Notes under the pieces: generated by a model
The model's database searches: none
What the model saw: only the letters and a program-made list of their open reading frames with translations
What the model was told of the DNA's origin: nothing
IMG/VR virus record: IMGVR_UViG_3300029922_000001
Span: 230,512 to 294,511 of that record
Strand: one strand, 5' to 3'
Length of the DNA stretch: 64,000 nucleotides
From: a virus
Made by a program: the position numbers and the translations under genes
Shown here: positions 31,235-63,421 of the stretch, in pieces
Numbering within the stretch: the first letter of the stretch is position 1
How the letters are laid out: the number at the start of each line of letters is the position of its first letter

Positions 31235-31265
31235 CTTTTATATAGTCCATGTCAGTATAATACGT

Positions 31266-31502
31266 TTGATGAAAAATGATGCATTGAAAAAGTTGTTCAG
31301 TGGTGTTATGCTTATAGCATACGCTCTGTTTATGGCACTCTACACTCCTGTTAGTCAAACAGCTAATTCTTTGGCTCAAGCACATAATGCTTTACCTACC
31401 ACAGATACAACTTTAGTATTTTTGCATAGCTGGGGATTGGTAGCAGTTCTCATTGTGTTGTTTGTGATTTGGCTCCCAAATATCCTAAAAGGTACAAAAT
31501 AA
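31266..31502 (+). CDS. small membrane protein
   Basis: Two hydrophobic helices. Confidence 0.35.
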   Translation: MMKNDALKKLFSGVMLIAYALFMALYTPVSQTANSLAQAHNALPTTDTTLVFLHSWGLVAVLIVLFVIWLPNILKGTK

Positions 31503-33577: not shown

Positions 33578-34270
33578 TTATTTCTTGTCAGATAAGTCTT
33601 TAGCTTCTTCTTCTGCATAAAGTAGACGATCTTCATCCTTGAAGAATGATGCATCTGACATACAAGCTGCTCCAGCTAAAGCCATACGAGAGGTTGCTTG
33701 TCCAACAGTGCTATACATAGCTCTTGTTGCACCCTTCCTATAATTAAATGAATTAGCTTGTGTTCCACCTAGCTGTTGAGCAACACCCCAAGCGTTCATG
33801 TCTGCACCCAGATAAGTGAATGTCCATTGTCCAGTAGCTTCTAATTCTGAAATCAAAGTTTTAAGCTTAGTAGTATCTTTATATTCTTTAGAAGAATTTT
33901 CATGACCATCAGTGTTAACCACTACAACAGATTTATATTCGCCTGATAGTTCATTCTTAGCTCTATAAACCGTAATACCAATACCATCCCATAATGCAGT
34001 CATGCCATTTGGAGCGTACGTATTGGTTGTTAATGGTTCTACTTCACTAAGAGGCTTATTTGCATAAACTGTAGTTACTTGATTACTGAATTTAACGAGA
34101 GTGACATAATAAACTACATCAACGTCTTTCTTGAGGGTGTCGATATACTCATTGATACCTTCAATGAGTTCAAGTCTGACGTTTTCCATTGAACTGGATT
34201 CGTCAAGGATCAAATATACATAAACTGGAATATTTGATGGAATCTGGGCTGTTACATTTGCTTCTACCAT
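33578..34270 (-). CDS. VWA-domain protein
   Basis: MIDAS motif DESSSM near the N-terminus, plus VVVNTDGHENS. Confidence 0.65.
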   Translation of the reverse strand: MVEANVTAQIPSNIPVYVYLILDESSSMENVRLELIEGINEYIDTLKKDVDVVYYVTLVKFSNQVTTVYANKPLSEVEPLTTNTYAPNGMTALWDGIGITVYRAKNELSGEYKSVVVVNTDGHENSSKEYKDTTKLKTLISELEATGQWTFTYLGADMNAWGVAQQLGGTQANSFNYRKGATRAMYSTVGQATSRMALAGAACMSDASFFKDEDRLLYAEEEAKDLSDKK

Positions 34271-34303: not shown

Positions 34304-35779
34304 ATGAATCAGTTATGGTATACTAACTCCATGTTTGACACAGATCGTTTAATTCATTTAGAAAAGCTACAAGAAGCTGGTTTAAATCCATTTGATAATT
34401 ATGGATTTAAGATGACTTCACCAATTGGGTTATATCTTGATACTTTTAATGTATTGATTAATGCTGTTTGTTTTGATAATACACATAGTTTATGTGGTCG
34501 CATTATTTCTATGCGTATTATGGGTAATATGGCTTTTGTTGATATTTCCGATGGTTCTCACAAGGTCCAGGCTGTTTTCCGTAAGAACCTAATGGATGCT
34601 GACACTTATAAGGCATTAAGATACCTAGATGAAGGTGATCATATTGGCGTGACTGGCAATCCATTTCTTACCCAAGCTGGTGAGAAGTCAATTCTTGTTA
34701 CAGAAATTAAGGTTCTAAGTAAGTGTCTTATCCCTTTACCAATTGGTAAGAGGAAGGATGGGGAAGTCTTTGATGCAGTTGTAGATCCAGATATTAGGCT
34801 TAGGCATCGTCATATTGACCTTGTAGCCAATCCAGATAATAGGGCGATGTTAATTGCACGTTCAAAGATGGTAAGCTGTATTAGGCGATTTTTAGATCAA
34901 GAAGATTTTCTTGAAGTTGAAACACCTTTACTAACTGAGGTTGCTGGTGGAGCAAGTGCTAAGACATTTGATACTCATTATAATGCTTATGATTTAGATA
35001 TGCATCTTCGTATTTCTTTGGAAATTCCTTTGAAGAAGTTGATTTGTGGTGATATTCCTGCCGTTTATGAAATTGGTAAGGTTTTCCGCAATGAAGGTGC
35101 TGACGCAACTCATAATCCAGAATTTACACTTTTGGAATGGTATCGTGCGTATTCAACACCAGAAGAGGAAATGCAAAGGGTTCAAGATTTAGTTTCATAT
35201 TTGATGCAAAAGTGGGATGCTGATCCTGCATGGGATGTAATTACTGTGCGTGATGCTATTTTAACCTATGTGCCTGATGTTTCCTGGTATGATCTTGATG
35301 TTATTGAGAAAATGAGAGAACATGCTCGTAGAAATGGAATCCATGTAACAGATCAAGATACTATGGGGAAGATTGAAGAAAAGCTAGTCGCTAAGTTCGT
35401 TGAGCCTAATCTGTTATATCCCACATTCTTAACAGAACATCATATCAGTAATTCACCTTTAGCTAGAACAGCACCAGGGAAGCCTGATCGTGCTTATAGA
35501 TTTGAAGCATATATTAATGGTTATGAAATCGCTAATGGTTATTCTGAGTTAAACAATGCAGTTGAACAAAAGGAACGATTAGAGGATCAAGTAGCTCAAA
35601 GAAATGGTGGAGACGCTGAAGCACAACCTTATGATCAAGATTTTATTTATGCTCTTGCCTCCGGTTGCCCTGCCGTAACGGGCGTGGGAATCGGTCTAGA
35701 TAGATTGGCAATGGTATTATATGGAGCAACACAAATTAGGCAAGTAATATTTTTCCCAACAATGAAGCATAGGAGTTAA
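34304..35779 (+). CDS. lysS: lysyl-tRNA synthetase (class IIb)
   Basis: N-terminal OB anticodon-binding domain. Motif 2 FRNEGADATHNPEFTLLEWYRAY is LysRS-specific (HNPEFT). Motif 3 GVGIGLDRLAMVL. Confidence 0.9.
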   Translation: MNQLWYTNSMFDTDRLIHLEKLQEAGLNPFDNYGFKMTSPIGLYLDTFNVLINAVCFDNTHSLCGRIISMRIMGNMAFVDISDGSHKVQAVFRKNLMDADTYKALRYLDEGDHIGVTGNPFLTQAGEKSILVTEIKVLSKCLIPLPIGKRKDGEVFDAVVDPDIRLRHRHIDLVANPDNRAMLIARSKMVSCIRRFLDQEDFLEVETPLLTEVAGGASAKTFDTHYNAYDLDMHLRISLEIPLKKLICGDIPAVYEIGKVFRNEGADATHNPEFTLLEWYRAYSTPEEEMQRVQDLVSYLMQKWDADPAWDVITVRDAILTYVPDVSWYDLDVIEKMREHARRNGIHVTDQDTMGKIEEKLVAKFVEPNLLYPTFLTEHHISNSPLARTAPGKPDRAYRFEAYINGYEIANGYSELNNAVEQKERLEDQVAQRNGGDAEAQPYDQDFIYALASGCPAVTGVGIGLDRLAMVLYGATQIRQVIFFPTMKHRS

Positions 35780-39204: not shown

Positions 39205-39651
39205 CTATGGTGATTTCGCCCAATAGTTTTTATAATGTTTAACTTCAGCATCTAAATCAAAAGGTAATCCTTTAACATGGTTGAAGTAAGCTTTAGATAT
39301 AATGCCAGTCATATCATCCGCATGAAGTACTCCTAAATTTTTAAACCACTTAGCTAATACGGAGTCATGCCACAATCCCCAGGTATTGCGCATATAAGTA
39401 CCATAGCCATGATGTGGCATCATTTCATAAGTGGATTTAGCATCATTTTTGATGAAATCTATATATTCAGGAGTTGCCACTGAATCAAAATAAGCGATAA
39501 CTTCATCTAGATTATTTGGGATATTGGTTGCACTAATAGCGGGTAAGATTTTTACAACCTTAACTAGCCTATTAAAATATTCATTATTATCGAAAGCGTC
39601 TTGAATTGATTTGTCTGTGACTTTTTCCATGCGTACTTCATCATTGTTCAT
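39205..39651 (-). CDS. hypothetical protein
   Basis: 148-aa ORF. Confidence 0.45.
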   Translation of the reverse strand: MNNDEVRMEKVTDKSIQDAFDNNEYFNRLVKVVKILPAISATNIPNNLDEVIAYFDSVATPEYIDFIKNDAKSTYEMMPHHGYGTYMRNTWGLWHDSVLAKWFKNLGVLHADDMTGIISKAYFNHVKGLPFDLDAEVKHYKNYWAKSP

Positions 39652-40196
39652 AGTTTATTATACTTAATCAGATTCTCTTCTTGTGTGATTTTATCCCAAG
39701 GTGCTTTAGATTGAAGAACTTTTTCAACAGTTGGATCATAATCCCAACGTTTAATCATATTTTGAATACTTTTAAGAGGTACACTATGTTGATTTCTTTT
39801 AGCTAATTCTTGTGCATCGAATTTCCAAGGTGTTTCAGGTTCATGAAAACTAACTTTATAATCATATTTTTGAGCAAGTTTTACGTACTCTCGAAATTCA
39901 TAAAAAGAACAATTTGTATTGTCACAAATAATAGGAGTAATACCTTGTTGCATTGCCACTTCAGTTCTTCTTTCATTTTCTTTATGATTTTCAGTTAGTT
40001 TATTAACATCAAATTTATATTCACCATTAACCATAAATAGATCATCAGTAGAATGAATAACTCCACCTTTTCCTAATTGCTTAGAAAGAAAACTTTTGCC
40101 AGAACCGGGAAGTCCGCGAATTATTCTTAACTCTTTTTCTTGTTGTGCTTTTCTATACCAAGTAGACATAATTCGATTATACCATTTTTCTATCAA
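39648..40196 (-). CDS. P-loop kinase (AAA_33 / polynucleotide-kinase-like)
   Basis: Walker A RGLPGSGKSFLSKQL and a downstream ICDNTN segment, consistent with a Walker B / Asp-containing lid. 182 aa. Confidence 0.6.
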   Translation of the reverse strand: MIEKWYNRIMSTWYRKAQQEKELRIIRGLPGSGKSFLSKQLGKGGVIHSTDDLFMVNGEYKFDVNKLTENHKENERRTEVAMQQGITPIICDNTNCSFYEFREYVKLAQKYDYKVSFHEPETPWKFDAQELAKRNQHSVPLKSIQNMIKRWDYDPTVEKVLQSKAPWDKITQEENLIKYNKL

Positions 40197-44557: not shown

Positions 44558-44567
44558 ATTTATCTCG

Positions 44568-44651
44568 TCCCGGCGAGTGGACTCGAACCACCACGCCCTT
44601 TCAGGCAACAGATTTTGAGTCTGCCGCATCTACCAATTACACCACACCGGG
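44568..44651 (-). tRNA. tRNA-Leu (CAA), class II
   Basis: Acceptor CCCGGTG/CGCCGGG. Anticodon stem GCAGA/TCTGT with loop CTCAAAA. Variable arm GCC-TGAAAG-GGC. T-arm GGTGG-TTCGAGT-CCACT. Discriminator A, then CGAG. Confidence 0.75.
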
Positions 44652-44871
44652 ATATTTCTCGTATAAGAAATTAATTCTTATTTTGTGAATCAAGTTGTCT
44701 TACTCTACTAAATAAAGCATCTCTCATTTCTTTGTTTTCACTTACTTCTTTAGCGTATGCACCCATCATATTTCTAAACATTTTTTGACCTTCTTCAGTA
44801 TTCATTGCTGATTCAATTATTTTCATTTTTTCAGGACTTGTTATAATCATATTAATTCTCCAATATCTCGG

Positions 44872-44973
44872 TGAGCAAACAGGGACTTGAACCCTGATGA
44901 CATTTTACTGTCGATGGGTTAGCAAAATTCTGATCTTGCTAAGCCCATTGCGTCTACATTTCGCCATTCGCCC
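44872..44973 (-). tRNA. intron-containing tRNA-Leu (UAG), class II, 102 nt with an 18-nt insert in the anticodon loop
   Basis: Acceptor GGGCGAA/TTTGCTC. Anticodon stem ATGGG/CCCAT flanks CTTAG + 18 nt + AA. The insert forms the TTAGCAA/TTGCTAA helix with the anticodon. Variable arm GACA-GTAAAA-TGTC. T-arm CAGGG-TTCAAGT-CCCTG. Confidence 0.55.
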
Positions 44974-44982
44974 ATATTCTCG

Positions 44983-45068
44983 TGCGGAGTAAAAGATTTG
45001 AACTTTCACCTGTTGATAAGACAGAATGGGACCTTAGCCCATCGCGGCTACCATTACGCCAACCCCGC
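44983..45068 (-). tRNA. tRNA-Leu (AAG), class II
   Basis: Acceptor GCGGGGT/ACTCCGC. D-arm GCG/CGC. Perfect anticodon stem ATGGG/CCCAT with loop CTAAGGT. Variable arm CTGT-CTTATCA-ACAG. T-arm GAAAG-TTCAAAT-CTTTT. Confidence 0.75.
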
Positions 45069-45077
45069 ATATTCTCG

Positions 45078-45159
45078 TCCGGGCGAGAGGGTTTGAACCT
45101 CCATGTCTTGCGACGGCAGGTTTTAAACCTGCTGCGGCTACCAATTTCGCCACACCCGG
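45078..45159 (-). tRNA. tRNA-Leu (UAA), class II
   Basis: Acceptor CCGGGTG/CGCCCGG. Anticodon stem GCAGG/CCTGC with loop TTTAAAA. Variable arm GTC-GCAA-GAC. T-arm GGAGG-TTCAAAC-CCTCT. Confidence 0.75.
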
Positions 45160-45417: not shown

Positions 45418-46764
45418 GTGAAACAAATTATTACAGCTAAATTAAAATTAGAAACAAATAAAGAACAATTTAAAGAATTAACTAATCTTAGTTTAGCTTA
45501 TTGTGGCGCTTTGAATTTTGGCTCTAATAAAGCCTTTGAATTAGACAAAACTACTAATGCTAACTTATTGCACAAAAGTATATATCGAGAATGTCGTGAT
45601 AAATTTGGATTACCATCACAATTAGCTTGTAGCGTTTCTAGATATGTTACTGCTTCTTATAAAACATTGTGGACAATTACCAATAAAAATATTAAAGCAA
45701 GAAAAAACAAAGAAACTAAGAGAGTTTATAAAGGACTGAATAAAGCTCCAAAATATATATCAAGAACGACTATGTTTCAATATGGTAGAGATTTTACATT
45801 CAAGAAGGATCAACAAATTAGTATTATTACTCTTAATGGAAGAATTCTTCTAGATTATAAAGGATGGAATAAACATCTTAATTTAATTAAAGATGAAAAT
45901 ACCAAAATTGGTGGAGCTAAACTTTATTATGATAAAGCTAAGAAAACTTTCTATCTCTTAGTTAGTTTAGAAATAGAAACACAAGAAGAAAAACAAATTA
46001 ACACAATAGGTATTGATTTGGGTCAAAGATATTTGGCTGTGGTAACTGATACACAAGATAATACATTGTTTATTCCTGGTAAGGAATGTATTAATCAAGT
46101 TGGAAAATATCAACGAGTTCGTAGTAGTCTTCAAAAAAAGATTAAAACGAATAAGAAAAATGGTAAAGGCACTCGTTCTATAACTAGAAAATTAATCCAA
46201 GTTAAAGGACAAGAGAGACGGTATAGATTATCATTAAATCATCAAACAGCAAGTTCGATATTACAAAGATTTCCTAATTCAAATATAGGATTAGAAAATC
46301 TTAAAGATATTAGAACAAGAACAGAAAGACATAGCAGTAAAAAAGATAGCAAAAAAAGAAAAGAAGCTAATCGTAATAAAGCTTCTTGGTCTTTTAATGA
46401 GTTACAACAATTAATAGAATATAAAGCTAATTTATATGGTAGTAAAATATTTAAAGTAGATGCCCATTATACATCTCAAATGTGTACTAAATGTGGTTAT
46501 ACTTCTAAAGAAAACAGACCTAAAAGTGGCTTGAATTTTATTTGTTGTAATTGTAATTTTAAATTACATGCTGATTTGATTGGAGCTAGAAATATAGCTA
46601 TGAGAACATTGTTATCTAGACAAGATTTAGATAATAAGGGGCATTTATCAATTGTCCCAGTAAGCGGCAAAGCCGCTTTAGATACCTCGAACAGTGAAGT
46701 TAAAGCGGAATCCTTGAAAAAGTATTCTGAATTGAGATGGAGTTCGGAGGCAAACTTAACTTAA
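45418..46764 (+). CDS. tnpB: TnpB (IS200/IS605 OrfB) RuvC-like RNA-guided-nuclease family protein (Fanzor/TnpB-like)
   Basis: RuvC-I IGIDLGQRYLAVVTD. RuvC-II ..SWSFNELQQLIEYKA. Zinc finger CTKCGY ... CCNCNF. RuvC-III HADLIGARNIAMR. GTG start in the track. Confidence 0.8.
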   Translation: MKQIITAKLKLETNKEQFKELTNLSLAYCGALNFGSNKAFELDKTTNANLLHKSIYRECRDKFGLPSQLACSVSRYVTASYKTLWTITNKNIKARKNKETKRVYKGLNKAPKYISRTTMFQYGRDFTFKKDQQISIITLNGRILLDYKGWNKHLNLIKDENTKIGGAKLYYDKAKKTFYLLVSLEIETQEEKQINTIGIDLGQRYLAVVTDTQDNTLFIPGKECINQVGKYQRVRSSLQKKIKTNKKNGKGTRSITRKLIQVKGQERRYRLSLNHQTASSILQRFPNSNIGLENLKDIRTRTERHSSKKDSKKRKEANRNKASWSFNELQQLIEYKANLYGSKIFKVDAHYTSQMCTKCGYTSKENRPKSGLNFICCNCNFKLHADLIGARNIAMRTLLSRQDLDNKGHLSIVPVSGKAALDTSNSEVKAESLKKYSELRWSSEANLT

Positions 46765-49854: not shown

Positions 49855-50547
49855 ATGGGAAAACAAAGTCGCCTAAGAAAAGAAAGAAAAGAGCGTCAAG
49901 AGAAAATCGCAATTGAGCAACCACAGTCTAGCTATTTACTAGAACCAGAACGTGCTGATTTAAGAACCGACTTAGGTGAAATTGCTGATTTTGCAGAGAC
50001 AATGCAACTAGATCAACTCAATAAGAAATTAAAGAAAATGATTGATTGGTTTAGAGGACATTTTGATGGCATCTGCACTACTATTAATGAAAATATTGTA
50101 GATATTGAAAATATTGGTATTTACAATGTTGACACAAACGAAGTAGAACCTTTGAAAGCGGCAAACATTGCTAAAGGACTATTAACACTTCCACCTTCAA
50201 GATTTCCTGTTGCACTAAAAGAACCTATCACAGAATCATTTGTTTCAGAAGATATAGATGCTATTGTTGACGAAACCAAAAACAACAAGATTCTAGATGA
50301 AATTACTATTGCTATTTTGAAGCTTGCTGAATGTAATAAAATTATGGCAGCAGCACAACAATTAGTTATGATGAATGATCTGCCATTAAATTTGGTTCAC
50401 GAAAAACTTGGCGACATCCGACTAGAGAAAGGTGACATGACTTATCCTTGCTATGAAATTACAGCAATTATGGCTGGTTTAATTGTTCTCGCTTCTGTTG
50501 GCAGTACCAGTTCATTTAATCCAAAGAATTTCCAATTTGTTCTATAA
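49855..50547 (+). CDS. hypothetical protein
   Basis: 230-aa ORF. Confidence 0.5.
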   Translation: MGKQSRLRKERKERQEKIAIEQPQSSYLLEPERADLRTDLGEIADFAETMQLDQLNKKLKKMIDWFRGHFDGICTTINENIVDIENIGIYNVDTNEVEPLKAANIAKGLLTLPPSRFPVALKEPITESFVSEDIDAIVDETKNNKILDEITIAILKLAECNKIMAAAQQLVMMNDLPLNLVHEKLGDIRLEKGDMTYPCYEITAIMAGLIVLASVGSTSSFNPKNFQFVL

Positions 50548-50575: not shown

Positions 50576-51202
50576 ATGAAGTTTATCAAGAATTGGCTTG
50601 TAAAATTATTTAAACCTATTATTGATGAATTAGTACGTCAAAACATACAGTCCATTATTGACGATCTACATATTTATGTAGATCACGCGAAAAACGACAT
50701 CAAAAGTACATTAACTCATGATTTAAATGATTTTTCAGAACAAATAAGTGCAACAGAAAAACTAATACAACAAAAATCTAATACTATAGATAGTAAGTTA
50801 AGTGATTATGATTCAAAAATCAAACTTATAGATACCCATGTTATAGATTTTACTAATAGGTTTTCAAACACCACAGAACAAATTAAAGAAACACACAATC
50901 AAGCCATAGATAAAATTAATACAGAGCTAGGTTTGGCAATTCAAAAATCTTCAAGTAAAAACACTACAGATATGCTCAATGAGATTGACAGTTTACGTGA
51001 ATCTCTTAAAATGACTTATCGTGCTGTTGATGATGAACTTAACCGTGTTCATTTTAGAATCAAAGGTGTGGAAGTAATCACAGAAGCTGAACTAAAAGAT
51101 ATAGAAACAAAAACCAAGAACGAAGTAATTGGTCTTCTTGAATATATTGATAATAACTGTGTTTTGAGAGAAGGTGATTATATAAATAATCTAGAACATT
51201 AA
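50576..51202 (+). CDS. hypothetical coiled-coil protein
   Basis: 208-aa ORF. Its ATG lies inside the inverted repeat ACTTCATA...TATGAAGT. Confidence 0.5.
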   Translation: MKFIKNWLVKLFKPIIDELVRQNIQSIIDDLHIYVDHAKNDIKSTLTHDLNDFSEQISATEKLIQQKSNTIDSKLSDYDSKIKLIDTHVIDFTNRFSNTTEQIKETHNQAIDKINTELGLAIQKSSSKNTTDMLNEIDSLRESLKMTYRAVDDELNRVHFRIKGVEVITEAELKDIETKTKNEVIGLLEYIDNNCVLREGDYINNLEH

Positions 51203-51205
51203 ATT

Positions 51206-52018
51206 ATGAATATAAAAGTTAGTGGAATATATAGAATTATAAACAAAATAAACAATAAATCATATGTAGGAAGTTCTACAGATATACAAGATAGATGGTG
51301 GAAACATAGAAAAATGTTAAAAAATAATAATCATTCTAATCCTCATTTACAGGCATCATATAATAAATATTCAAGTGTTGTTTTTGATTTTGAAATATTG
51401 CAATCTATGCCAGGGGCAACCACTAAAGAACTCCAAGAAAAAGAATTATCATGGATGTTATTTTTAAATGTACATAATAATAAAAATGGGTATAACATTA
51501 ACGGAGTTGAAGGTTATAAAATAGGTTTTAAGCACACTGAAGAAACTAAAAAGAAAATAAGTGAATCTGTAAAAAACAGAACATACACAGAAGAACAATT
51601 GGAAAATTTAAGAAACAATTTAAGTAAAATAATTAACAATCCAGAAACGAAAAGGAAAATTTCAGAATCTAAAAAAGGAAAATTATTAACAAAAGAACAT
51701 AAAAGGAAAATTTCAGAATCTAAAAAAGGAAAATTATTAACAGAAGAACATAAAAGAAAAGTTGGTGATGGTAATCGCGGTAAAATAATAAGCGAAGACA
51801 CAAGAGAAAAACAAAAAATATCTATTTTAAACAATAAGGAATTTATGAACAAATTAATTAAAAAATGGATAATAATAAATCCTGATGGGGAAGAATATAA
51901 AATAGAAAATTTATCTCAATTTTGTAGAGATAATCAATTAAGAGATGGATGTATGTCTTTAGTTGCGCAAGGTAAAAGAAAATCACATAAAGGATGGAGT
52001 TGTTATGAAATTAAATAA
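51206..52018 (+). CDS. GIY-YIG homing endonuclease with NUMOD3-type DNA-binding repeats (T4 Seg-like)
   Basis: [18 protein letters not shown] ... R..H (GIY-YIG core). Tandem repeats [16 protein letters not shown](K/E)[24 protein letters not shown]. Confidence 0.8.
51655..51750 (+). repeat. direct tandem repeat (about 42 nt x 2.2) encoding the NUMOD3-like [14 protein letters not shown] unit inside the GIY-YIG gene
   Basis: AAAGGAAAATTTCAGAATCTAAAAAAGGAAAATTATTAACA.AGAACATAAAAG appears twice in succession. Confidence 0.6.
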
Positions 52019-52553
52019 TATTAACATTTTTTATACTGCGATCAAATTCACATTAAGTTTTGAGGGGTCATATAGTTTAAATAAAGATGATCCAGGTGGG
52101 GCTACAAACTATGGAATTATTCAATCTGAATATAATATCTATAGAAAATCTAAAAAACTACCAGAACAATCTGTTAAGTTAATTACAATAGTTGAAGTTA
52201 AAGATATCTATAAAAACAGTTATTGGTTGTCTGCCAAATGTGATAAATATCAAACAAAATTAGCTATTGTAATGTTTGATACCGCTGTTAATTTTGGGAC
52301 CGGTAGAGCCGCAAAATGGCTTCAAAAATCACTAGATGTTGCACAAGATGGTGCTATTGATCCAGCTACTTTAGCAAAATTAGCAAAAACAGATCAAGGA
52401 TTATTAGCCAATAGAATTTGTGAGTATAGAATTGCATTCAGATATGCAAGAGTAGCATCTGCGCCTAGTCAAAAAGTCTTTTTAAATGGTTGGCTTAATA
52501 GAGACAATGCACTTAAAAAACTAATTGGTGGGACTATCACTTTGGTTAGTTAA
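51963..52553 (+). CDS. GH108-type lysozyme-like N-terminal domain + peptidoglycan-binding (PG_binding_3-like) C-terminal domain; endolysin-like peptidoglycan hydrolase
   Basis: [20 protein letters not shown] is the GH108 catalytic-Glu motif. The C-terminus ..[11 protein letters not shown] resembles the PG-binding domain. The likely start is the internal ATG near 52005 (MKLNNINIF). Confidence 0.7.
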
Positions 52554-52684
52554 TTCTAATAAAAACATATCTATTTCTCTAGCAAAAGAAGTAAATAAAA
52601 TCTTTTTATTAGCTGGAGTTTCATTATTAATATACGCCATTAATGAAGCTGCTAATATAGAAGCCTCTTGTCAATTACCCACAG

Positions 52685-53794
52685 CTAAAGCAGTGGGCTT
52701 GTTACAACCGCGCTTTGCGCGGGAACAATAGGGATATTGACTAATCCCCTACATTGAATATTTAAGGAAGCATTATAATCAGCATTAGCAGCGAAGCTGC
52801 AAGATAAACATTTAAATTCACTCTGATTCTTCCTATTTTTCTTATTACAATATCCACAATGAGAACACGTCTGGGACGTGTATGCTGGATTAACAAGAAA
52901 AACAGGAACACCTTGTTCCTTGGCTTTATATTCAATAAACGATCTAAGTTGAGCGAAGCTCCAACTTAATCTTTCATTACGATTAGCTTTTCTGACCGTT
53001 ACTCTTTTATTGATTCCTTTTAACTCTTCTAGAGCTATACCAAATTGAGTGCCTTTAGCTTTATTAACTATTTCTTTGGAAATACAATGATTAACATCTT
53101 TTCTAAATCTTGATTCTTTATTTCCAATAGTTTTAATTCTTTTCTTTGCAGAGCGTGTCCCACGCTTCTGTAATCTCGTTCTGTGATCATGATATTTCTT
53201 TCTCTTATTTTCTATTTTATCAGAACTATAGATAGTATTATCAGAAGTAGTAGCAATATTTTTAACACCTAAATCGACTCCAATAATTCCTTTAGTATTA
53301 TATTTTTCTTCAGTTGGAGTTGGAATATCAAGAGTACATAATAAGTAAAATTTATTATTTTGAAGTACTAGATCAACTTGACCTTTTCTAAATTTAAATA
53401 ATTCATTATTCCATATTTGGATTGGAATATTCATTCTTCCTTCAATAGTCCAAATATTAACTATTTTATTATTTTTAAAAGTAATAACTCTGTCGTCATA
53501 GACGACAGCAGAAGTTTTCTTAAATGAATTAGGATATTTTCTATGTTTACTTATTTTATAAGAACAAGATACAACGTCAATAGCTCTAATGGTTAATTGA
53601 GAAGAAAATTCTTTATATTTTTCTCTTGAAGGATGATAAACAATTTTTTGCAATTGATTTTTATGAAATTGCCCAACTTTAAAAGCTTCTTCAGAAAATT
53701 CATTACAAATTTGATTAAAGACATTCATCGTGCCCAAGAGGGCACGATATTGATTATCATCTGTATTTAGCTTAATCTTCAATATTTTCTTCAC
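52685..53794 (-). CDS. tnpB: TnpB (IS200/IS605 OrfB) RuvC-like nuclease family protein, second diverged copy
   Basis: RuvC-I IGVDLGVKNIATTSD. RuvC-II ..SWSFAQLRSFIEYKA. Zinc finger CSHCGY ... CLSCSF. RuvC-III ADYNASLNI. Confidence 0.8.
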   Translation of the reverse strand: MKKILKIKLNTDDNQYRALLGTMNVFNQICNEFSEEAFKVGQFHKNQLQKIVYHPSREKYKEFSSQLTIRAIDVVSCSYKISKHRKYPNSFKKTSAVVYDDRVITFKNNKIVNIWTIEGRMNIPIQIWNNELFKFRKGQVDLVLQNNKFYLLCTLDIPTPTEEKYNTKGIIGVDLGVKNIATTSDNTIYSSDKIENKRKKYHDHRTRLQKRGTRSAKKRIKTIGNKESRFRKDVNHCISKEIVNKAKGTQFGIALEELKGINKRVTVRKANRNERLSWSFAQLRSFIEYKAKEQGVPVFLVNPAYTSQTCSHCGYCNKKNRKNQSEFKCLSCSFAANADYNASLNIQCRGLVNIPIVPAQSAVVTSPLL

Positions 53795-53961: not shown

Positions 53962-54582
53962 TCATTTTTTCTGTCCATATCTATCAAAAACCTCAAGAGT
54001 ATCTTCATAGTTCTTACGATCTACTTCTTCTTGTTTGTAAGTTAATACCATTTTAACAATCTGATCTACTGTGTCTTCGCCTTCCATTTTTACAGAATGA
54101 TAGGTAATGCTATTTCTATCTAATACGTTTTTGATATCAGCATCTGCTTCTAGTGCCTTAGTTAAATCTTGATAACGACCTGATTCATCATAAGCTACCA
54201 AATCTAAGTTTCTTTCGATTAACACGTTGAAGTTATTAAACTCATTGAAAATTTCCACAATGTATGGTTCAAACAAAGAAGTACAACCAAACCCTTTATA
54301 GATAGTTCCCATTAAGATAGAAGTATCAGTGACGGCAATATCGACTTTACCAATAACTGGAATCATTTGACGCATATATTGTTTCACAGTAACGTATAAC
54401 TGATTTTTTATTTTATTATCTTCAGTCCAATATAAGTCTTTTGCGTATTCTGGAATATACTCAACATTAACCCCTTTTACCTTTAATTTATAAAATACAC
54501 CAGCAGCAACTGTTGATTTACCAATTCCAGGTCCGCCAAAAATGTTTATTATGATTGTATCTTTAATGTTGTGTGGCATCAT
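53962..54582 (-). CDS. P-loop NTPase, paralog of 1486..2070
   Basis: Walker A IFGGPGIGKSTVAAGVFYKL. Collinear with the 1486..2070 product. Confidence 0.5.
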   Translation of the reverse strand: MMPHNIKDTIIINIFGGPGIGKSTVAAGVFYKLKVKGVNVEYIPEYAKDLYWTEDNKIKNQLYVTVKQYMRQMIPVIGKVDIAVTDTSILMGTIYKGFGCTSLFEPYIVEIFNEFNNFNVLIERNLDLVAYDESGRYQDLTKALEADADIKNVLDRNSITYHSVKMEGEDTVDQIVKMVLTYKQEEVDRKNYEDTLEVFDRYGQKK

Positions 54583-55890: not shown

Positions 55891-56171
55891 ATAACCTCTG
55901 TGTTTTCTAAATCTTCTGGAACCTCTTCAATGGTATCTTGGTTTTCATTTTCCAATTCTTTCTTAATCATAGCAACAATTGATTTAGTTTGTTGATTAAA
56001 CATATAGTGACCTACTACATAGTCAGGAAAATATCCAAAATAACTAAAATATCTATTTTGGACTTCCTTACTTTCTGTAGACTTCTTTTTAATTTGATAA
56101 TCTAGCATACGTATATTATACCGCAGGTTGCCAGAATGAAACAAGAGATTTAGCTTGATCAACATCAACAT
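55887..56171 (-). CDS. hypothetical protein
   Basis: 94-aa ORF. Confidence 0.35.
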   Translation of the reverse strand: MLMLIKLNLLFHSGNLRYNIRMLDYQIKKKSTESKEVQNRYFSYFGYFPDYVVGHYMFNQQTKSIVAMIKKELENENQDTIEEVPEDLENTEVI

Positions 56172-56772
56172 CTAATCCAACAACTGTTTCTGATTGACCT
56201 TGTAGAACGTCCCAATCAGTATATGTTTTAGAATCTTCCCAACCAGGAGATTGAGCCATCCAGCCATAATGAGCCAAACCTTTACTCTTTAATACTCTAC
56301 ACACTTCACCAGAACCATAAACACCAACTAGGTAACCAGCAGCTTTAATAATTGGGTGAGCAATAGTGAAATATTCTGCTACAGCACCTTCAGCGGGAAG
56401 GTCAACATCAATAGCTAAATAAATAGCGATTTTAGGGTTATTAACGTCACCAGGAACACCTAGTGCTTTTAAAACAGCTACAGATTGTTCTGCGTGTGAT
56501 TTAGCATTTGAAGCAGTAAATGTACTTGCTGTATTACCCTCTTCCCAAACAAATCCACAAGAGATTTTCATGGTGTGTAATCCTGCGATTTCATTACTTT
56601 CAACTCTTTTATTCTTGAAATTAGCTGAATCTGGTGAAATGTAACGAATAACAAAATTGTATTTATCTGCATCAATTGTATGAGCTTTATTGTATACAGA
56701 ATAAGGAGTGTCAAAACCCTTATACATAACACTTGATTCTGAAAGAAATTCTTCTGATTGTTTGCTTAACAT
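56116..56772 (-). CDS. hypothetical protein (possible GH25-like/DUF1906-like TIM-barrel)
   Basis: 218-aa ORF. FVIRYISPD ... is weakly reminiscent of Rv2525c-like glycoside-hydrolase-like proteins. Confidence 0.5.
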   Translation of the reverse strand: MLSKQSEEFLSESSVMYKGFDTPYSVYNKAHTIDADKYNFVIRYISPDSANFKNKRVESNEIAGLHTMKISCGFVWEEGNTASTFTASNAKSHAEQSVAVLKALGVPGDVNNPKIAIYLAIDVDLPAEGAVAEYFTIAHPIIKAAGYLVGVYGSGEVCRVLKSKGLAHYGWMAQSPGWEDSKTYTDWDVLQGQSETVVGLDVDVDQAKSLVSFWQPAV

Positions 56773-57371: not shown

Positions 57372-58250
57372 ATGATGAAATCAAAATCTCAAGAGGTGTG
57401 GATGCTACGCGGCGTCCCCGGCAGTGGAAAAAGCACTTGGGCAAAGGAATTTATTAAAAATAATCCTGGTTATGTTCGCACTAATAACGATGAAATTAGA
57501 CTTGAAATGTTTAATCGCGTTTTTGATAAGAATGATACTAAGGCTGTTGATGCTGAGCGAAACAGAGTTATTAAGGAAACCCTTGATAATGGTCTTAGTA
57601 TTGTTATTGATAACACTAATTTGTCACCTAAGCGTGAAGACGAATACAAGACGTTGGCGAAGAAGTATGGTGCTGAATTTAAGATTCAGTGTTTTATGCA
57701 TGTACCTTTACGTGATTGTTTGGCAAACAACTATAAGCGACCTAATCCGGTTGGTGAGAAGATTATCAAGGATATGTACAGACAGTTTGTAGAGCCTTTG
57801 TTGAAGCCAACTCCTGTTGAATATGTAGAGGGTTTAGAGGACGTGTACGTGTGCGATATGGATCAAACATTATCTTTAATGAAAGGAATTCGTGGACCTT
57901 TCGAATGGCATAAGGTTAATTTAGATTTACCAAATATTCCGGTAGTTAAATTAATTCAAAAACTTGCTAAGACAAATAAAATCATTATTATGTCTGGTAG
58001 GGATGGTTGTTGCCGTGATTTAACTATTGAATGGCTTAATCAACATGAAGTTCCGTTTTTTGAATTGCATATGAGGGCGATGAATGACTCTAGAAAGGAT
58101 AGTACTGTGAAGGAAGAACTTTATAAATCAAAATTACAATATCGTTTTAATATTCTAGGTTGGTTCGACGACCGCGAAGCGGTTTGTGAACTAGTTTATT
58201 CATTAGGATTACCACTGTTCCGTGTGGGGGACCCTCATAGTTCGTTTTGA
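57372..58250 (+). CDS. bifunctional polynucleotide 5'-kinase / 3'-phosphatase (T4 PseT-like): N-terminal P-loop kinase + C-terminal HAD phosphatase
   Basis: Walker A LRGVPGSGKSTWAKEF. HAD motif I CDMDQTLS (DxDxT) in the C-terminal half. Preceded by TTGGTATAATCAATGT-ATG. Confidence 0.75.
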   Translation: MMKSKSQEVWMLRGVPGSGKSTWAKEFIKNNPGYVRTNNDEIRLEMFNRVFDKNDTKAVDAERNRVIKETLDNGLSIVIDNTNLSPKREDEYKTLAKKYGAEFKIQCFMHVPLRDCLANNYKRPNPVGEKIIKDMYRQFVEPLLKPTPVEYVEGLEDVYVCDMDQTLSLMKGIRGPFEWHKVNLDLPNIPVVKLIQKLAKTNKIIIMSGRDGCCRDLTIEWLNQHEVPFFELHMRAMNDSRKDSTVKEELYKSKLQYRFNILGWFDDREAVCELVYSLGLPLFRVGDPHSSF

Positions 58251-58294: not shown

Positions 58295-58576
58295 ATGTTT
58301 AAATTCCTTAGAAATATATTTAGCAAAGAAGCTGAAGCTTCATGGGTACACTGTGGTACCTATTTAGACACCAATCATTATTACGCAGCAGATGATTGCT
58401 ATTGTGTGAACTGTTTACCTGATAGCCCAGCTTACTCTCTGGTTAAGGTGTTTAAAAAACACACTAGAGATAATAAATGGCAGATGAAGGAAACTATATT
58501 CGCATTATCTCTCGAAGAGTATCAAGGATATTCAAAGAAAATCCCTAACACTCTGATGCCACCACCTATTAGTTGA
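58295..58576 (+). CDS. small Cys-rich protein
   Basis: WVHCGTYLDTNHYYAADDCYCVNC. Confidence 0.4.
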   Translation: MFKFLRNIFSKEAEASWVHCGTYLDTNHYYAADDCYCVNCLPDSPAYSLVKVFKKHTRDNKWQMKETIFALSLEEYQGYSKKIPNTLMPPPIS

Positions 58577-59789
58577 GTGGTAATGGTGTTTCTTGTTTGT
58601 AAATGCTTTGGTCAGCGCATGAGCCAAGTGATTTATTTTTATCTCTTTCTTGTCTAAGGGTAATATTAATTGCGTCATTTCGTTGTTTTTGTCTTTTTAG
58701 TTCATGTTCTATTTTTTCTTTTTCTATCAATAATTTTTGATAATCTTTTTTAAGTGTTTTGAGATTTAAGCATTTATTTTCTGTATGAACTAATATCTTA
58801 ACTATGCCATAATCATTCATAATGCCAACTCCCATGTCAGCCAATACAGTCCAAGATGCTTCAATTTCATTAATATTTATATTTTTTTCAGAATTAAAAA
58901 TTGGATAAAAACCTGTTTCATTGGCGTAAGCCAGTGTGTCTATTAACTCTATAGGTCTTTTACCTTCGATATATTTATTTTCATATACTTTAATATCCTG
59001 TAATACATTAATTACTCCAATATATTCTTTTTTACTTAGTATATAAACAGCATTTTTAGGACATATAGTACAAACTAAAATTGGAATATTTTTATAATAA
59101 GCCCAAATAGGTGCTACTCCAACTTCGTGATTTTCAACATCGTAATTAGTTTTAATAAGTTCTTCGTGATCCCAACTTTCAACATGGCTCCACAAACAAG
59201 GGGACATTAAAATTGCTCCACGAGGTAGTCCATGTTGATCAATTAATGACAAAGCGAAATTTATGTTTTCTGGCTCCAATTTATCAATTACAGTTATTGA
59301 ATGGTCAGCTTCTACTGCTGCATTAACAACATTTAATACTAATGTATCTATTTGTCTCATTAAAGCATCTTTTGATCTTTCTAAAATATGTTTATGAGCA
59401 AGCTCTTTACTTTTAAAATGTTTATATAGCTCTCTGGATTCTTTTTTTGTTAATAATGGATAACTAGCCATAGTAACAGTGGGTATGGATAAAGCCTCTG
59501 GTTTTATATTGACAACTGGCACTGTTCCGCACGGATCACCACCAATTATATAAGCTTTAGAAGCTATGTCTCTCATATGATAAATACGAATATAATTATC
59601 TCTAAGATTATCATAGTATTCTTTAAGTTCTTCGTTTGTAAGTGTAAGATGAACATTATTATGTTTATGTTGATCTTGTTTTATTTTATGATGTTCTTTA
59701 ATTTCCGCTTCTGTGAAATCATCACGTTGTAAAATATGAAATGCCACCGGATTATAGGGTGCGCTAACAGGTATAGTACGTATATTCAT
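58569..59789 (-). CDS. hypothetical protein, tandem paralog of 59948..61045, C-terminal coiled coil
   Basis: Shared blocks NPVAFHILQRDD, CPKNAVYILSKKEYIGVI, NDYGIVKILV. Confidence 0.55.
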   Translation of the reverse strand: MNIRTIPVSAPYNPVAFHILQRDDFTEAEIKEHHKIKQDQHKHNNVHLTLTNEELKEYYDNLRDNYIRIYHMRDIASKAYIIGGDPCGTVPVVNIKPEALSIPTVTMASYPLLTKKESRELYKHFKSKELAHKHILERSKDALMRQIDTLVLNVVNAAVEADHSITVIDKLEPENINFALSLIDQHGLPRGAILMSPCLWSHVESWDHEELIKTNYDVENHEVGVAPIWAYYKNIPILVCTICPKNAVYILSKKEYIGVINVLQDIKVYENKYIEGKRPIELIDTLAYANETGFYPIFNSEKNININEIEASWTVLADMGVGIMNDYGIVKILVHTENKCLNLKTLKKDYQKLLIEKEKIEHELKRQKQRNDAINITLRQERDKNKSLGSCADQSIYKQETPLPLN

Positions 59790-59947: not shown

Positions 59948-61045
59948 CTACTCTATTTCATCGTCAAATATTTTAGTTTCAAGTTTTTGTATTGTACGCT
60001 TTAAATTTCTAATCTCATGTTTTAGTTCCCAATTTTCTTCTTCTAATTGTTTAAGATCAGATTCTTCCTTAGTGGAATAGTTAACTAAAATTCTAGCAAT
60101 AGTCCAGTCATTCATAACATGAACACCAACTCTGGCTGATACAATCCAAGATTTTTCTAAAGTGTCAGCTAATTCCTGAGTGCATTCAAGTTGATAACCA
60201 TTAGATGATTTAGACAATTTTGTGTTATGCCATCGTAATGGGTTTATATCACTTTCATTAGTTCGTACTGTGGATATAAATTCAACTGGAGCAACTTCAA
60301 TATCTTGTTCAACTGGAATTGTACCAATATACTCTTTTTTGCTTAATATATAAATGGCGTTTTTAGGGCACATATTTGATACATAAATAGGAACATTTTT
60401 ATAATGTCCCCAAATGGGTGGTGTATCAATATTTGGATCTTCAATATCGTAATTAGTGTAAGTTAGAGGAACAATTTCTTCGTCGGTGCCAACTCCCCAA
60501 TCTTCAATATCACGCCATCTAGCACTGTGCATTACAATTGCTCCACGAGGTTGTTCGTGAGAGTCTAGTAAATATAAAGCTAAGTTAAGATTGCATGGTT
60601 GTAATGTTCCAACAACAGATATACAGTGTTCACCTGGAACTGCTGCATTAATTGTCATAAATAATTCAGTGTCTATTTGTCGTCTGACACTATCTTTAAA
60701 ACGTTCAATAATTTGTTTTTCTACATTCTCTAGACTTCCATAAGCTTTAACTAAATTTGGAACTTCTTTTTTTTGCAGAATAGGATTTGAGGCAATAGTG
60801 CGACACTGTACAAAAAGTTGTTCAGTTTCTATAGGTTGAGGTCGTAATTCATTATTTCCAATACTATTGGGAATATTGTTGAGAACATAGGATTTAGCAG
60901 AAATGTCTGTTGAATAAAAACAGTTTTGAGGGTTGGCGATTTCTTCAATGGTACGATCATCACGTTGAAGTAGATGAAAGGCTACTGGGTGATACCAGAC
61001 AGCGTTACGAATAACACGTTGTTTCATAATAGATACCTTTGACAA
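59948..61045 (-). CDS. hypothetical protein, tandem paralog of 58569..59789
   Basis: Shared blocks HPVAFHLLQRDD, CPKNAIYILSKKEYIGTI, NDWTIARILV. Confidence 0.55.
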   Translation of the reverse strand: MSKVSIMKQRVIRNAVWYHPVAFHLLQRDDRTIEEIANPQNCFYSTDISAKSYVLNNIPNSIGNNELRPQPIETEQLFVQCRTIASNPILQKKEVPNLVKAYGSLENVEKQIIERFKDSVRRQIDTELFMTINAAVPGEHCISVVGTLQPCNLNLALYLLDSHEQPRGAIVMHSARWRDIEDWGVGTDEEIVPLTYTNYDIEDPNIDTPPIWGHYKNVPIYVSNMCPKNAIYILSKKEYIGTIPVEQDIEVAPVEFISTVRTNESDINPLRWHNTKLSKSSNGYQLECTQELADTLEKSWIVSARVGVHVMNDWTIARILVNYSTKEESDLKQLEEENWELKHEIRNLKRTIQKLETKIFDDEIE

Positions 61046-62084: not shown

Positions 62085-62675
62085 TTATACCTCATATGGA
62101 GGTTCTGGAGTGCGAATAGTGTAATCATCATCGTGTTTACCGTTAAAATCTTCTTGGCGCATAAATTGTTTTACATATTCGGCATTAGCTTCAATCTTGT
62201 ATTGTAGGGCGGCAGAAGTGGCTTGTATTGCTGTACATTTTGCTAATTTATAATCATCAAAATCAAGCATTTTTTCTTCAAGGATTTTCTCAACTTGAAT
62301 ATTTGCTAATTTAGTTGCCTTCTTAGTTGCAACATCTGCAAGGTCTTTCTGCTTTTTAATTTCAATATCAGCTAAACCTTGAACCCTGTTAATTTCAATG
62401 ATAGCGGCATTAGCTTTTGCTTTATTGATTTTTTCTAGAAGGTCTAATTCTGTTTGTAGTGGCAACGCTAAACGGGTTCTTTCTAGTTCAATTTCTTGTC
62501 TTAATAGACTAACACTTTCTTTTTCTCTTTCGAGTCGTTCTTTTTCTTCTAGAATAATTTGACGATCTATAATCATATTTGCTTTATTGTGCAAATAGCT
62601 GTTAAAAATTCTTTGCTTACTTTGAATAAGATAAACAATGTATAGAAGGACGAGACATGCTAAAGTAAACCACAT
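62085..62675 (-). CDS. membrane-anchored coiled-coil protein
   Basis: N-terminal transmembrane helix MWFTLACLVLLYIVYLIQS followed by heptad repeats. Confidence 0.45.
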   Translation of the reverse strand: MWFTLACLVLLYIVYLIQSKQRIFNSYLHNKANMIIDRQIILEEKERLEREKESVSLLRQEIELERTRLALPLQTELDLLEKINKAKANAAIIEINRVQGLADIEIKKQKDLADVATKKATKLANIQVEKILEEKMLDFDDYKLAKCTAIQATSAALQYKIEANAEYVKQFMRQEDFNGKHDDDYTIRTPEPPYEV

Positions 62676-63010: not shown

Positions 63011-63421
63011 GGGTTGACTAATTCTGTGAAGATGGTGGTATAATAGATACGTGATAACAAGTGGGCTCGTAAGGGAATCGACATGTTGCATATATTGATG
63101 AACTTGAGTGAGAGATTACCCTTGGCTCTCTAAAAATGGGTAGAAAACATAAACGGCAAATCATATGCTTATGTAGGTTAATTCCTACCGCAAAAAATAA
63201 AGGTTAGTTGAGGACACTTTATTGAGCGTTGAAAAAATTCAACTACGCTATTAGGGTTGGTGGACCTTGGACCTGAAATAGTTAAATTAATCAAGTATCC
63301 GGTTGCAGCGGTTTGATTTATACCAACATGCTTCCTATTAAATAAATCTACGCTCATAAAAAATAATTATTGGTATATCAGTAATGGAAACGGCTTCGAG
63401 TGCCGTCGGGTCCACCCGCGA

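Follow-up and report, generated by a model that had tools for sequence, protein, structure and literature searches.

The GH108 gene, its neighbours and its product

The stretch of DNA analysed here (the window, 64,000 nucleotides) carries at 52005..52553 (+) a gene for a 182-aa muramidase that combines a GH108 and a PG_binding_3 domain, referred to below as the endolysin, and whose product is identical to protein P0001. A longer open reading frame at 51963..52553 (+) is present as described in a sequence-only reading of the same DNA; however, the gene almost certainly starts at the ATG at 52005 and not at the TTG at 51963, because the spacing of a Shine-Dalgarno-like GGAG read from the sequence (51996..51999, +, 5 nt 5' of the ATG), the P0001 gene call, and the N-termini of homologs all agree on it. 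The 14 extra residues gained from the TTG fall within the preceding gene, a free-standing homing endonuclease gene with GIY-YIG and NUMOD3 domains (51206..52018, +; Pfam 6.2e-8 and 7.5e-10), the final 14 nt of which overlap the endolysin start. Convergent with the endolysin is a gene for TnpB, an RNA-guided endonuclease of the IS200/IS605 type (52685..53794, −; Pfam and NCBIfam guided_TnpB). The endolysin gene is flanked in this way by two selfish elements, GIY-YIG at its start and TnpB at its stop, and is intact. The interval 3' of tnpB (52554..52684, −), which adjoins the endolysin stop codon, resembles a structured RNA; folding of 52545..52790 (−) yielded G+C-rich hairpins (z = −3.44), and the interval is a candidate omega-RNA or right end of the TnpB element. 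Promoter and terminator scans around the endolysin gene were at chance level, and comparison of the window with 94 fetched loci containing GH108 relatives revealed no synteny.

The two-domain arrangement, previously proposed to be of the endolysin or ZliS type, was borne out by Pfam matches above the gathering scores for both parts. The catalytic domain (52044..52298, +; residues 14-98 of 182) matched PF05838, Glyco_hydro_108, with E 7.5e-23 and 81.3 bits (threshold 21.2), the alignment covering positions 2-85 of an 85-position profile, and the C-terminal domain (52308..52502, +; residues 102-166) matched PF09374, PG_binding_3 (E 6.4e-9, 36.3 bits against 24.6), with agreement from alignment, structural model, and fold match. 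The whole protein also matched PHROG 315, ‘endolysin’ (6.4e-44), and the 20-residue GH108 motif quoted in the sequence-only reading occurs exactly at 52059..52118. In an alignment with Brucella abortus SagA (7dnp), E20 (52062-52064), D29 (52089-52091), and T34 (52104-52106), all on the plus strand, align with Glu17, Asp26, and Thr31, the catalytic residues of SagA (PMC8334348), and are invariant in 39 homologs. The motif reads EGSY, with Ser in place of the second Gly of EGGY, a Gly that is kept in at least 90% of homologs. PG_binding_3 is a helical bundle with a GW(163)xxR(166) motif, of which W163 and R166 are invariant in the homolog alignment, and the substrate-clamp residues Y69, Y73, and W163 are conserved between the endolysin and SagA/TtsA.

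The AlphaFold (AF2) model of the endolysin had a pLDDT of 94.6, and its top Foldseek match was SagA (TM 0.77-0.80, rmsd 2.6 Å, both domains superposed). All 15 significant Foldseek matches in the PDB were GH108 proteins, namely SagA, NMB1012, TtsA, Sen1395, and a P. gingivalis protein, and sequence matches in the PDB were to SagA 7dnp (3e-19), NMB1012, and TtsA/Sen1395. The modelled catalytic lobe is helical and T4-lysozyme-like, as in solved GH108 structures, and residues 2-17 form a structural helix, alpha1, ending at the catalytic Glu; no signal peptide, SAR, or other hydrophobic segment was found in the protein. As far as sequence comparison can tell, the endolysin is a divergent GH108-PG3 enzyme with intact catalytic residues, and its homology to SagA, TtsA, and T4 lysozyme suggests N-acetylmuramidase chemistry.

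Relatives occur in 582 phage records, many of them annotated as endolysin, and the ten commonest host genera of these phages are all Gram-negative. Itself aside, the closest match among 5.8 billion clustered proteins was at most 54% identical. The endolysin belongs to a subclade marked by a 4-residue insertion and by a PSQKVFLxGWLNRDN motif in the binding domain.

Role of the enzyme

The most satisfactory explanation, and in our judgement a probable one, is that the gene encodes a holin-dependent, soluble, two-domain N-acetylmuramidase of a ~522-kb tailed phage with a bacterial, probably diderm, host. An endolysin is the most likely identity of the enzyme, with holin dependence and a role in lysis inferred. 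Because it has neither signal peptide nor SAR anchor, the protein would accumulate in the host cytoplasm until the inner membrane is made permeable by a holin, whose gene would lie in another part of the genome, and the murein comes within reach. The C-terminal domain would then clamp the glycan strand while Glu20 serves as general acid and Asp29 and Thr34 position the water, all three on the flexible alpha1-alpha2 loop; hydrolysis of the MurNAc-beta-1,4-GlcNAc bond would be followed by cell lysis.

No small transmembrane or lipoprotein gene that might encode a holin or spanin was found within ~10 kb on either side of the endolysin. Small transmembrane or lipoprotein candidates in the window were limited to 8997..9233, 19243..19521, 31266..31502, and 62085..62675, and the nearest small multi-transmembrane ORFs (19243..19521 and 31266..31502) lie ~20-30 kb away. 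Two upstream ORFs (49855..50547 and 50576..51202) were considered for these functions and rejected on account of their size, a single C-terminal transmembrane segment or none, and the lack of a family match. Linkage in a lysis cassette is common but not strictly required in large phages; since lysis genes are often scattered in such genomes, the missing holin or spanin neighbour carries little weight.

The same missing neighbour is nevertheless one of several observations that favour a different role, namely that the protein belongs to the virion or acts at entry as a peptidoglycan hydrolase, or is an accessory wall remodeller, with the lysis enzyme encoded elsewhere. A second peptidoglycan-hydrolase-like gene, whose Rv2525c_GlyHyd-like product (56116..56772, −; Pfam 2.2e-19) matches PHROG 13480, also ‘endolysin’, lies 3.6 kb from the first and could supply that alternative lysis enzyme, and the capsid genes are only 6 kb from the endolysin. 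The closest relatives, moreover, occur in neck, tail, or fibre neighbourhoods of other large phage contigs: the gene for P0002 (54% identical) lies between those for a 1577-aa protein and a tail sheath in one large phage, and the gene for P0040 (46% identical) adjoins those for a 1553-aa protein and fibre-like proteins in another. It is conceivable, though doubtful, that this GH108 subclade comprises wall-piercing, virion-associated enzymes of jumbo myoviruses instead of lysis enzymes. Against such a role, virion-associated lysins are mostly domains within large structural proteins, whereas a small, free-standing GH108-PG3 protein has the architecture of verified endolysins, and proteins of this type are annotated as endolysins in hundreds of phages; for the Acinetobacter-phage endolysins ElyA1 and ElyA2, which are of the GH108-PG3 type, muralytic activity has been demonstrated by experiment (PMC7188820). 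On balance, a virion-associated or accessory function appears unlikely, and a lysis enzyme is the preferred reading.

Origin of the window

Two tandem genes for HK97-fold proteins lie at 58.6-61.0 kb, and with them a feature that the sequence-only reading had named as able to settle the matter, an HK97 major capsid protein, was located within the window. The first gene (58569..59789, −) encodes a 406-aa major capsid protein candidate matching PHROG 2522 (2.7e-17); the second (59948..61045, −; PHROG 2522, 3.7e-13) encodes a paralog 39-40% identical to it, which may be a vertex protein or a minor capsid component. The candidate matched NCBIfam NF042927 at 5.2e-20 with 71.5 bits, below the curated cut-off of 80, and its sole cultured relative was gp27 of phage G (1e-9); its AF2 model (pLDDT 89.3) had phage capsids as best Foldseek matches (E 1.8e-10, probability 1.0). 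The family is rare, with 58 matches among 1.84 billion representatives, and the capsid protein had no match when IMG/VR was scanned with it. A further 406-aa ORF at the window end (63502->) was tried as a third paralog and set aside, being 11% identical and lacking a PHROG match.

Several other genes presuppose bacterial machinery. A tmRNA is encoded at 63063..63417 (+; ARAGORN, and Rfam RF00023 with 62.9 bits, gathering score 47), translation initiation factor IF3 at 23975..24505 (−; Pfam IF3_N 1.3e-23, IF3_C 3.1e-19), and a bacterial-type class II lysyl-tRNA synthetase (LysRS) at 34304..35779 (+; NCBIfam NF001756, 474 bits, cut-off 468); an SPFH protein (31503..) carries a lipoprotein lipobox (...AMYATGC), and a sigma-70-family sigma factor gene lies just beyond the window. 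A protein identical to the LysRS, among other proteins 100% identical to those of the window, is encoded on a 521,591-bp contig, which places the genome above 200 kb. Neither terminase, portal, nor tail genes were found in the window and ~14 kb of flanks (~8 kb left, ~6 kb right) read from short Logan contigs of run SRR8555072, and megablast of positions 40000-64000 against 50,697 phage records returned no match. The gene repertoire of huge phages has been published (Al-Shayeb et al., 2020, PMC7162821), and the gene set of the window agrees with it. Given the HK97 paralogs, tmRNA, IF3, LysRS, lipobox, TnpBs, sigma factor, and 521,591-bp contig, together with phage precedents for the remaining unusual genes, the source is a huge phage of the Caudoviricetes with a bacterial host, probably a diderm.

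The peptidoglycan-walled bacterial host deduced earlier from the endolysin is upheld. Of the additional bacterial cues then cited, IF3 and the lipobox stood, but the -10-like promoters did not, as 29 were found against 31.7 in shuffled sequence. Shine-Dalgarno motifs were enriched only slightly, at 10 of 78 genes compared with 5.7% of random positions, and the Bacteroidota -7 motif TAnnTTTG was not enriched in the window (83 found, 98.7 expected). Named best matches for LysRS and for the PARP described below lean to Armatimonadota, and the endolysin finds its best cellular matches in a Fimbriimonas MAG and in filamentous cyanobacteria. All these matches are only 44-48% identical and the G+C content of 33% fits poorly, for which reason the host is not assigned to a phylum.

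A WGR-PARP protein, TnpBs described as Fanzor-like, and tRNA genes with insertions had been taken as eukaryote-type features in tension with a bacterial host. All three are present in the window; the tension, however, dissolved, because PARP, TnpB, and intron-bearing tRNAs are already known from large phages and hence do not conflict with the endolysin. The WGR-PARP_reg-PARP protein (27082..28380, +; likely a 432-aa form, with the maximal ORF starting at 26797) has full-length homologs with 36-38% identity (E down to 2e-73) in cultured jumbo phages, specifically XacN1, Xoo-sp13, and Klebsiella and Stenotrophomonas phages. It also has hundreds of ~430-aa metagenome relatives, the few named ones being from bacterial MAGs, whereas eukaryotic PARP1/2 match it only at ~1e-16. 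Both TnpBs (369 and 448 aa) matched the prokaryotic NCBIfam TnpB model over its full length (193.7 and 170 bits, cut-off 100), and homologs are found in 352 phage records. Measured against that prokaryotic model, nothing appears to mark either as Fanzor-like. No eukaryotic source is needed to account for the PARP, the TnpBs, or the tRNA introns.

Two tRNA genes contain insertions in the anticodon loop, one of ~31 nt at 15380..15482 (−; Rfam 52.8 bits, aragorn -i) and one of ~18 nt in a class II, Leu-like tRNA at 44872..44973 (−; Rfam 38.6 bits, aragorn -i, and fold). In both genes the insertion prolongs the anticodon stem, producing a long hairpin, and the first gene folds into a cloverleaf whose anticodon hairpin is extended (z = −6.1). 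The main cluster of tRNA genes has a gene for a Tpt1/KptA RNA 2'-phosphotransferase as its immediate neighbour, and the window also encodes a T4-like polynucleotide kinase-phosphatase. Introns of the archaeal/eukaryotic type lie canonically at position 37/38 with a bulge-helix-bulge (BHB) motif; here the insertion boundaries are ambiguous, with ARAGORN and manual parsing differing in the anticodon and no clear 3-4-3 BHB motif seen. A 22-nt word from a tRNA exon had no match in IMG/VR. There is a published precedent for introns in phage tRNAs, from Lak megaphages of ~540 kb (Devoto et al., 2019, PMC6784885). It is conceivable, but doubtful, that the phage splices its own intron-bearing tRNAs by a ‘healing and sealing’ pathway that it encodes itself and that is of the kind found in fungi and plants, in which Tpt1 and the kinase-phosphatase would act with a further endonuclease and a ligase; if true, tRNA splicing in a bacterium would here be carried out by a virus-borne system.

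Among the three scenarios offered earlier, the huge phage was borne out by the HK97 capsid, and neither an endosymbiont-associated element nor a giant virus found support. In the former case the window would belong to a cellular genome or megaplasmid, of an endosymbiont or another bacterium, and the protein would be a secretion autolysin of the ZliS/SagA/TtsA type. The best solved relatives are indeed the secretion-associated bacterial muramidases SagA and TtsA, and bacterial genomes hold relatives of up to 48% identity; however, the window contains the tandem HK97 capsid-protein genes, homing endonucleases, and a dense tRNA set with tmRNA, neither ribosomal or other cellular core genes nor secretion-system genes were found among ~46 window ORFs searched against Pfam, and the repertoire is that described for huge phages (PMC7162821), which makes a cellular origin very improbable. 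Less credible still is an NCLDV giant virus of eukaryotes using the lysozyme against its host's bacterial prey or symbionts, as the eukaryote-like flavour of WGR-PARP, Tpt1, and intron-bearing tRNAs is superficial, the PARP, TnpB, and tRNA introns each have phage precedents, the capsid has the HK97 fold and not a double jelly-roll, no NCLDV hallmark (double-jelly-roll MCP, A32, D5, PolB) was matched among the ~46 window ORFs searched against Pfam, and tmRNA, IF3, the sigma-70-family factor, lipobox, and bacterial LysRS presuppose a bacterial setting.

Significance and comparison with known systems

The window can be assigned with confidence to a tailed bacteriophage of ~522 kb, which is chiefly a matter of annotation clean-up: the PARP, TnpB, and tRNA introns should not be taken as a sign of a eukaryotic host or chimeric origin. 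The endolysin enlarges the pool of Gram-negative-type lysins and raises no new question. More interesting by-products are the rare HK97 capsid family, shared among cultured phages only with Bacillus phage G, and the intron-bearing tRNAs beside Tpt1, which bear on the ‘enigmatic’ tRNA introns of Lak megaphages.

Like this phage, huge phages such as Lak and Bacillus phage G have genomes of >500 kb, and huge phages likewise encode many tRNAs, aminoacyl-tRNA synthetases, IF3, tmRNA, and a sigma factor. Phage G gp27 is distantly related to the capsid protein described here, and Lak megaphages share the short tRNA-gene introns but differ in using code 15 and in a G+C content of 26%, against the standard genetic code and 33% in this phage.

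The founding N-acetylmuramidase of GH108 is gp61 of coliphage N4. N4 gp61 and ElyA1/ElyA2 are likewise phage-encoded proteins of ~170-200 aa in which GH108 is followed by PG_binding_3, without a signal peptide. The Acinetobacter-phage enzymes of the ElyA1/ElyA2 type are, however, only ~36-38% identical to the endolysin, N4 gp61 and ElyA have EGGY in place of EGSY, and the subclade insertion and binding-domain motif distinguish the present protein from them; its gene, in contrast to those of the N4/ElyA endolysins, is part of a ~522-kb phage genome and has no lysis cassette beside it. The closest solved structures are B. abortus SagA (7dnp; 30% identity) and Salmonella Typhi TtsA (6v40), whose Glu/Asp/Thr triad is identical to that of the endolysin. 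SagA and TtsA are encoded on chromosomes and act as autolysins for a type IV secretion system or for the export of a toxin, whereas the endolysin is a phage gene product with no such partner genes nearby.

The GH108 endolysin and its predicted function

The open reading frame at 51963..52553 (+), which the sequence-only reading had called as a GH108 domain followed by PG_binding_3, was confirmed in Pfam by a whole-profile Glyco_hydro_108 match (E 7.5e-23; 81.3 bits, cut-off 21.2) and a C-terminal PG_binding_3 match (E 6.4e-9; 36.3 bits, cut-off 24.6); the protein also matched endolysin family 315 in PHROGs (6.4e-44), and the GH108 motif quoted earlier was read directly in the DNA at 52059..52118. 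The start codon is likely the ATG at 52005 rather than the TTG at 51963; GGAG lies 5 nt 5′ of this ATG, the 182-aa product is the database gene call P0001, whose start point is shared by homologs, and the 14 additional codons from the TTG fall within the upstream gene.

A search of PDB sequences recovered Brucella SagA (7dnp, 3e-19), Neisseria NMB1012 (2is5/2ikb), and Salmonella Sen1395 and TtsA (6v3z/6v40). The SagA catalytic residues Glu17, Asp26, and Thr31, equivalent to T4 lysozyme Glu11/Asp20/Thr26 (PMC8334348), align in HMMER with E20, D29, and T34 of the endolysin, which were invariant among 39 aligned homologs, as were Y69, Y73, W163, and R166; the sole deviation was Ser22, replacing the second Gly of the EGGY motif present in at least 90% of homologs. 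In an AlphaFold2 model built on this alignment (mean pLDDT 94.6), helix α1 (residues 2–17) runs into the catalytic Glu, and all 15 significant PDB structure matches were GH108 proteins, with SagA the best (TM 0.77–0.80, rmsd 2.6 Å over 169 columns). No hydrophobic segment was found in the endolysin, which thus has neither a signal peptide nor a SAR anchor. Together, the conserved residues, GH108 fold, and lack of an export signal point to a two-domain cytoplasmic muramidase with its catalytic site intact, belonging to the GH108-PG3 type, of which ElyA1/ElyA2 from Acinetobacter phages have been shown experimentally to be muralytic (PMC7188820). The gene adds a new and divergent member to a well-known family of endolysins.

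Two selfish elements flank the gene, specifically a GIY-YIG/NUMOD3 homing endonuclease (51206..52018) overlapping its first 14 nt and a convergent tnpB downstream (52685..53794, −), whose strongly structured 3′ region (down to 52554; z −3.44), a possible omega-RNA, terminates exactly at the endolysin stop codon. Because the endolysin C-terminus is of normal length compared with homologs, neither insertion has harmed the gene. A second tnpB (45418..46764, +) adjoins a tRNA-Leu cluster (44567..45159); no TnpA was detected adjacent to either, and blastn found no extended terminal similarity between the two elements.

The best-supported role, by analogy, is that of a canonical endolysin. Judging from its homologs, the enzyme would build up in the host cytoplasm and gain access to the wall via a holin encoded elsewhere, after which the PG_binding_3 bundle would grip the glycan strand and Glu20 and Asp29/Thr34 would hydrolyze the MurNAc-GlcNAc bond. 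A virion-associated or accessory role is rather unlikely, its small weight coming from three observations: no holin or spanin was found adjacent to the gene, the closest homologs in other large phages lie in tail and neck neighborhoods, and a second peptidoglycan-hydrolase-like protein without a signal peptide, Rv2525c_GlyHyd-like, is encoded 3.6 kb away (56116..56772, −; Pfam 2.2e-19; PHROG 13480 “endolysin”, 2.5e-12).

Separately, a membrane/periplasmic module at 30488..32501 (+), resembling bacterial SPFH-NfeD operons, encodes a protease of the trypsin type whose N-terminus carries a hydrophobic segment, a 78-aa protein with two TM segments that is a possible holin, and an SPFH/Band-7 lipoprotein (lipobox AMYATGC).

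Phage hallmarks in the window

The virus is identified as a huge phage of the Caudoviricetes. An HK97 capsid protein had been named beforehand as a feature that would settle the nature of the virus, and a candidate is present at 58569..59789 (−), matching PHROG 2522 “major head protein” (2.7e-17) and the NCBIfam HK97-fold major capsid protein (5.2e-20; 71.5 bits, slightly below the curated 80). Its AlphaFold2 model (pLDDT 89.3) gave 358 Foldseek matches with E ≤ 0.001, and phage capsids, among many others those of NF5, D3, and HK97, were matched with probability 1.0. In sequence, the protein’s sole match among 50,697 phage records was gp27, the major head protein of Bacillus phage G (1e-9). 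The neighboring gene (59948..61045, −) encodes a paralog 39–40% identical to it, and by analogy with T4 gp23/gp24 the pair may comprise the major capsid protein and a vertex protein. This tandem family is rare, with 58 matches at E ≤ 0.001 among 1.84 billion representative proteins and phage G gp27 as its only cultured relative.

The window also encodes IF3, a bacterial-type class II LysRS (474 bits), 11 tRNAs predicted by ARAGORN plus two more by Rfam, and a tmRNA (63063..63417, +; Rfam 62.9 bits vs. 47), a set likewise present in the huge-phage repertoire of tRNAs, aaRS, IF3, and tmRNA (PMC7162821). The tag peptide that ARAGORN predicts for the tmRNA, GKSYAYVG*, is unusual, being short and without the usual C-terminal Ala-Ala degradation signal. 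Other features include HNH and GIY-YIG homing endonucleases, the two TnpBs, an SPFH protein with a lipoprotein signal and, ~0.5 kb left of the window, a sigma-70-family factor (PHROG 351, 1.3e-19) and ThyX. One 521,591-bp contig encodes proteins that match the endolysin and LysRS at 100% identity. Neither NCLDV hallmarks nor cellular core genes were detected among the ~46 window ORFs scanned with Pfam.

A bacterial host

The bacterial host deduced from the endolysin in the sequence-only reading was correct, and sequence relationships indicate that this host is probably diderm, since the phages encoding relatives of the endolysin overwhelmingly infect Gram-negative bacteria (Vibrio, Acinetobacter, Brucella, Phocaeicola, Escherichia, Klebsiella, and Pseudomonas) and the best relatives among 185,579 species genomes were all diderm bacteria. 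The host phylum cannot be named from these matches: the best cellular matches of the endolysin were filamentous cyanobacteria and a Fimbriimonas MAG, and the named best matches of LysRS and PARP lean to Armatimonadota, all at only 44–48% identity. Shine-Dalgarno motifs preceded 10 of the 78 predicted genes across the whole window (5.7% expected at random positions), despite the good GGAG of the endolysin, and no enrichment of the Bacteroidota promoter motif was found in the window. Weak Shine-Dalgarno usage, along with the phage’s own IF3 and sigma factor, suggests either a host with similarly weak usage or phage-specific initiation.

The supposed tension between an endolysin pointing to a bacterial host and eukaryote-type genes proved illusory, as PARP, TnpB, and tRNA introns all have phage precedents and none argues for a eukaryotic host. 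Cultured jumbo phages infecting Xanthomonas, Klebsiella, and Stenotrophomonas encode homologs of the WGR-PARP_reg-PARP protein (27082..28380, +; probably starting at 27082, 432 aa) with 36–38% identity, 80% query coverage, and a best E of 2e-73, and two uncultured huge phages encode more distant ones, whereas human PARP1/2 matched no better than ~1e-16. Hundreds of metagenomic relatives of ~430 aa reach 73% identity, the few named ones being bacterial MAGs (Armatimonadetes, Blastocatellia). A Fanzor-like TnpB had been suggested, but both TnpBs (369 and 448 aa) align along the full length of the prokaryotic model (194 and 170 bits, cut-off 100), and TnpB relatives occur in 352 phage records.

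RNA-repair and NAD/ADP-ribose genes, and intron-bearing tRNAs

The WGR-PARP is one of a set of RNA-repair and NAD/ADP-ribose genes, alongside a Tpt1/KptA RNA 2′-phosphotransferase directly adjoining a tRNA cluster and IF3 (23392..23952, −; Pfam 1.6e-44), a T4-like polynucleotide kinase-phosphatase (PNKP; 57372..58250, +), and a NADAR domain protein (18430..18942, −). Among P-loop genes of the AAA_28 (NadR-kinase-like) type, at least two lie in the window (1486..2070 and 53962..54582, both −) and another at 9418..9966 (−) of L013; they may function in NAD salvage or as nucleotide kinases. Two further kinases, of the AAA_33 type, are present, one at 39648..40196 and the other as the N-terminal domain of PNKP. 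The window yielded no RNA ligase and no splicing endonuclease; the RNA-repair and NAD/ADP-ribose set could act either to counter anticodon nucleases through tRNA repair or to splice the phage’s own intron-bearing tRNAs. For a stand-alone 215-aa protein without a catalytic domain (11489..12136, −), the sole match is to the domain with which class I aminoacyl-tRNA synthetases bind the anticodon (Pfam Anticodon_2, 4.6e-14). A MoxR-like AAA+ ATPase is followed by a DUF2201 metallopeptidase/VWA protein (2069..5034, +), a pairing common in bacteria, and a separate VWA protein lies at 33578..34270 (−).

The tRNA insertions are real in two genes, namely a tRNA with a ~31-nt anticodon-loop insertion (15380..15482, −; Rfam 52.8 bits) and a class II Leu-like tRNA with one of ~18 nt (44872..44973, −; Rfam 38.6 bits), both of which fold as cloverleaves with the anticodon stem lengthened by the insert (z −6.1 and −4.3, respectively). 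Two weaker candidates (20922..21013 and 22785..22883, both −) were predicted solely by the ARAGORN intron option, without Rfam support. Across all four, insertions span 17–31 nt, and in each case the lengthened anticodon stem forms a long hairpin; intron boundaries are ambiguous and so, consequently, are the anticodons (Gly-GCC or Pro-AGG; Leu-UAG or Arg-UCU). The intron-bearing tRNAs beside Tpt1 and PNKP merit separate attention, as do the tandem rare capsid family and the NAD/ADP-ribose gene set. The part of the sequence-only reading that took the introns as a eukaryotic signature did not hold, because similar “enigmatic” tRNA introns have been published for Lak megaphages (PMC6784885), making intron-bearing tRNAs a known huge-phage trait.
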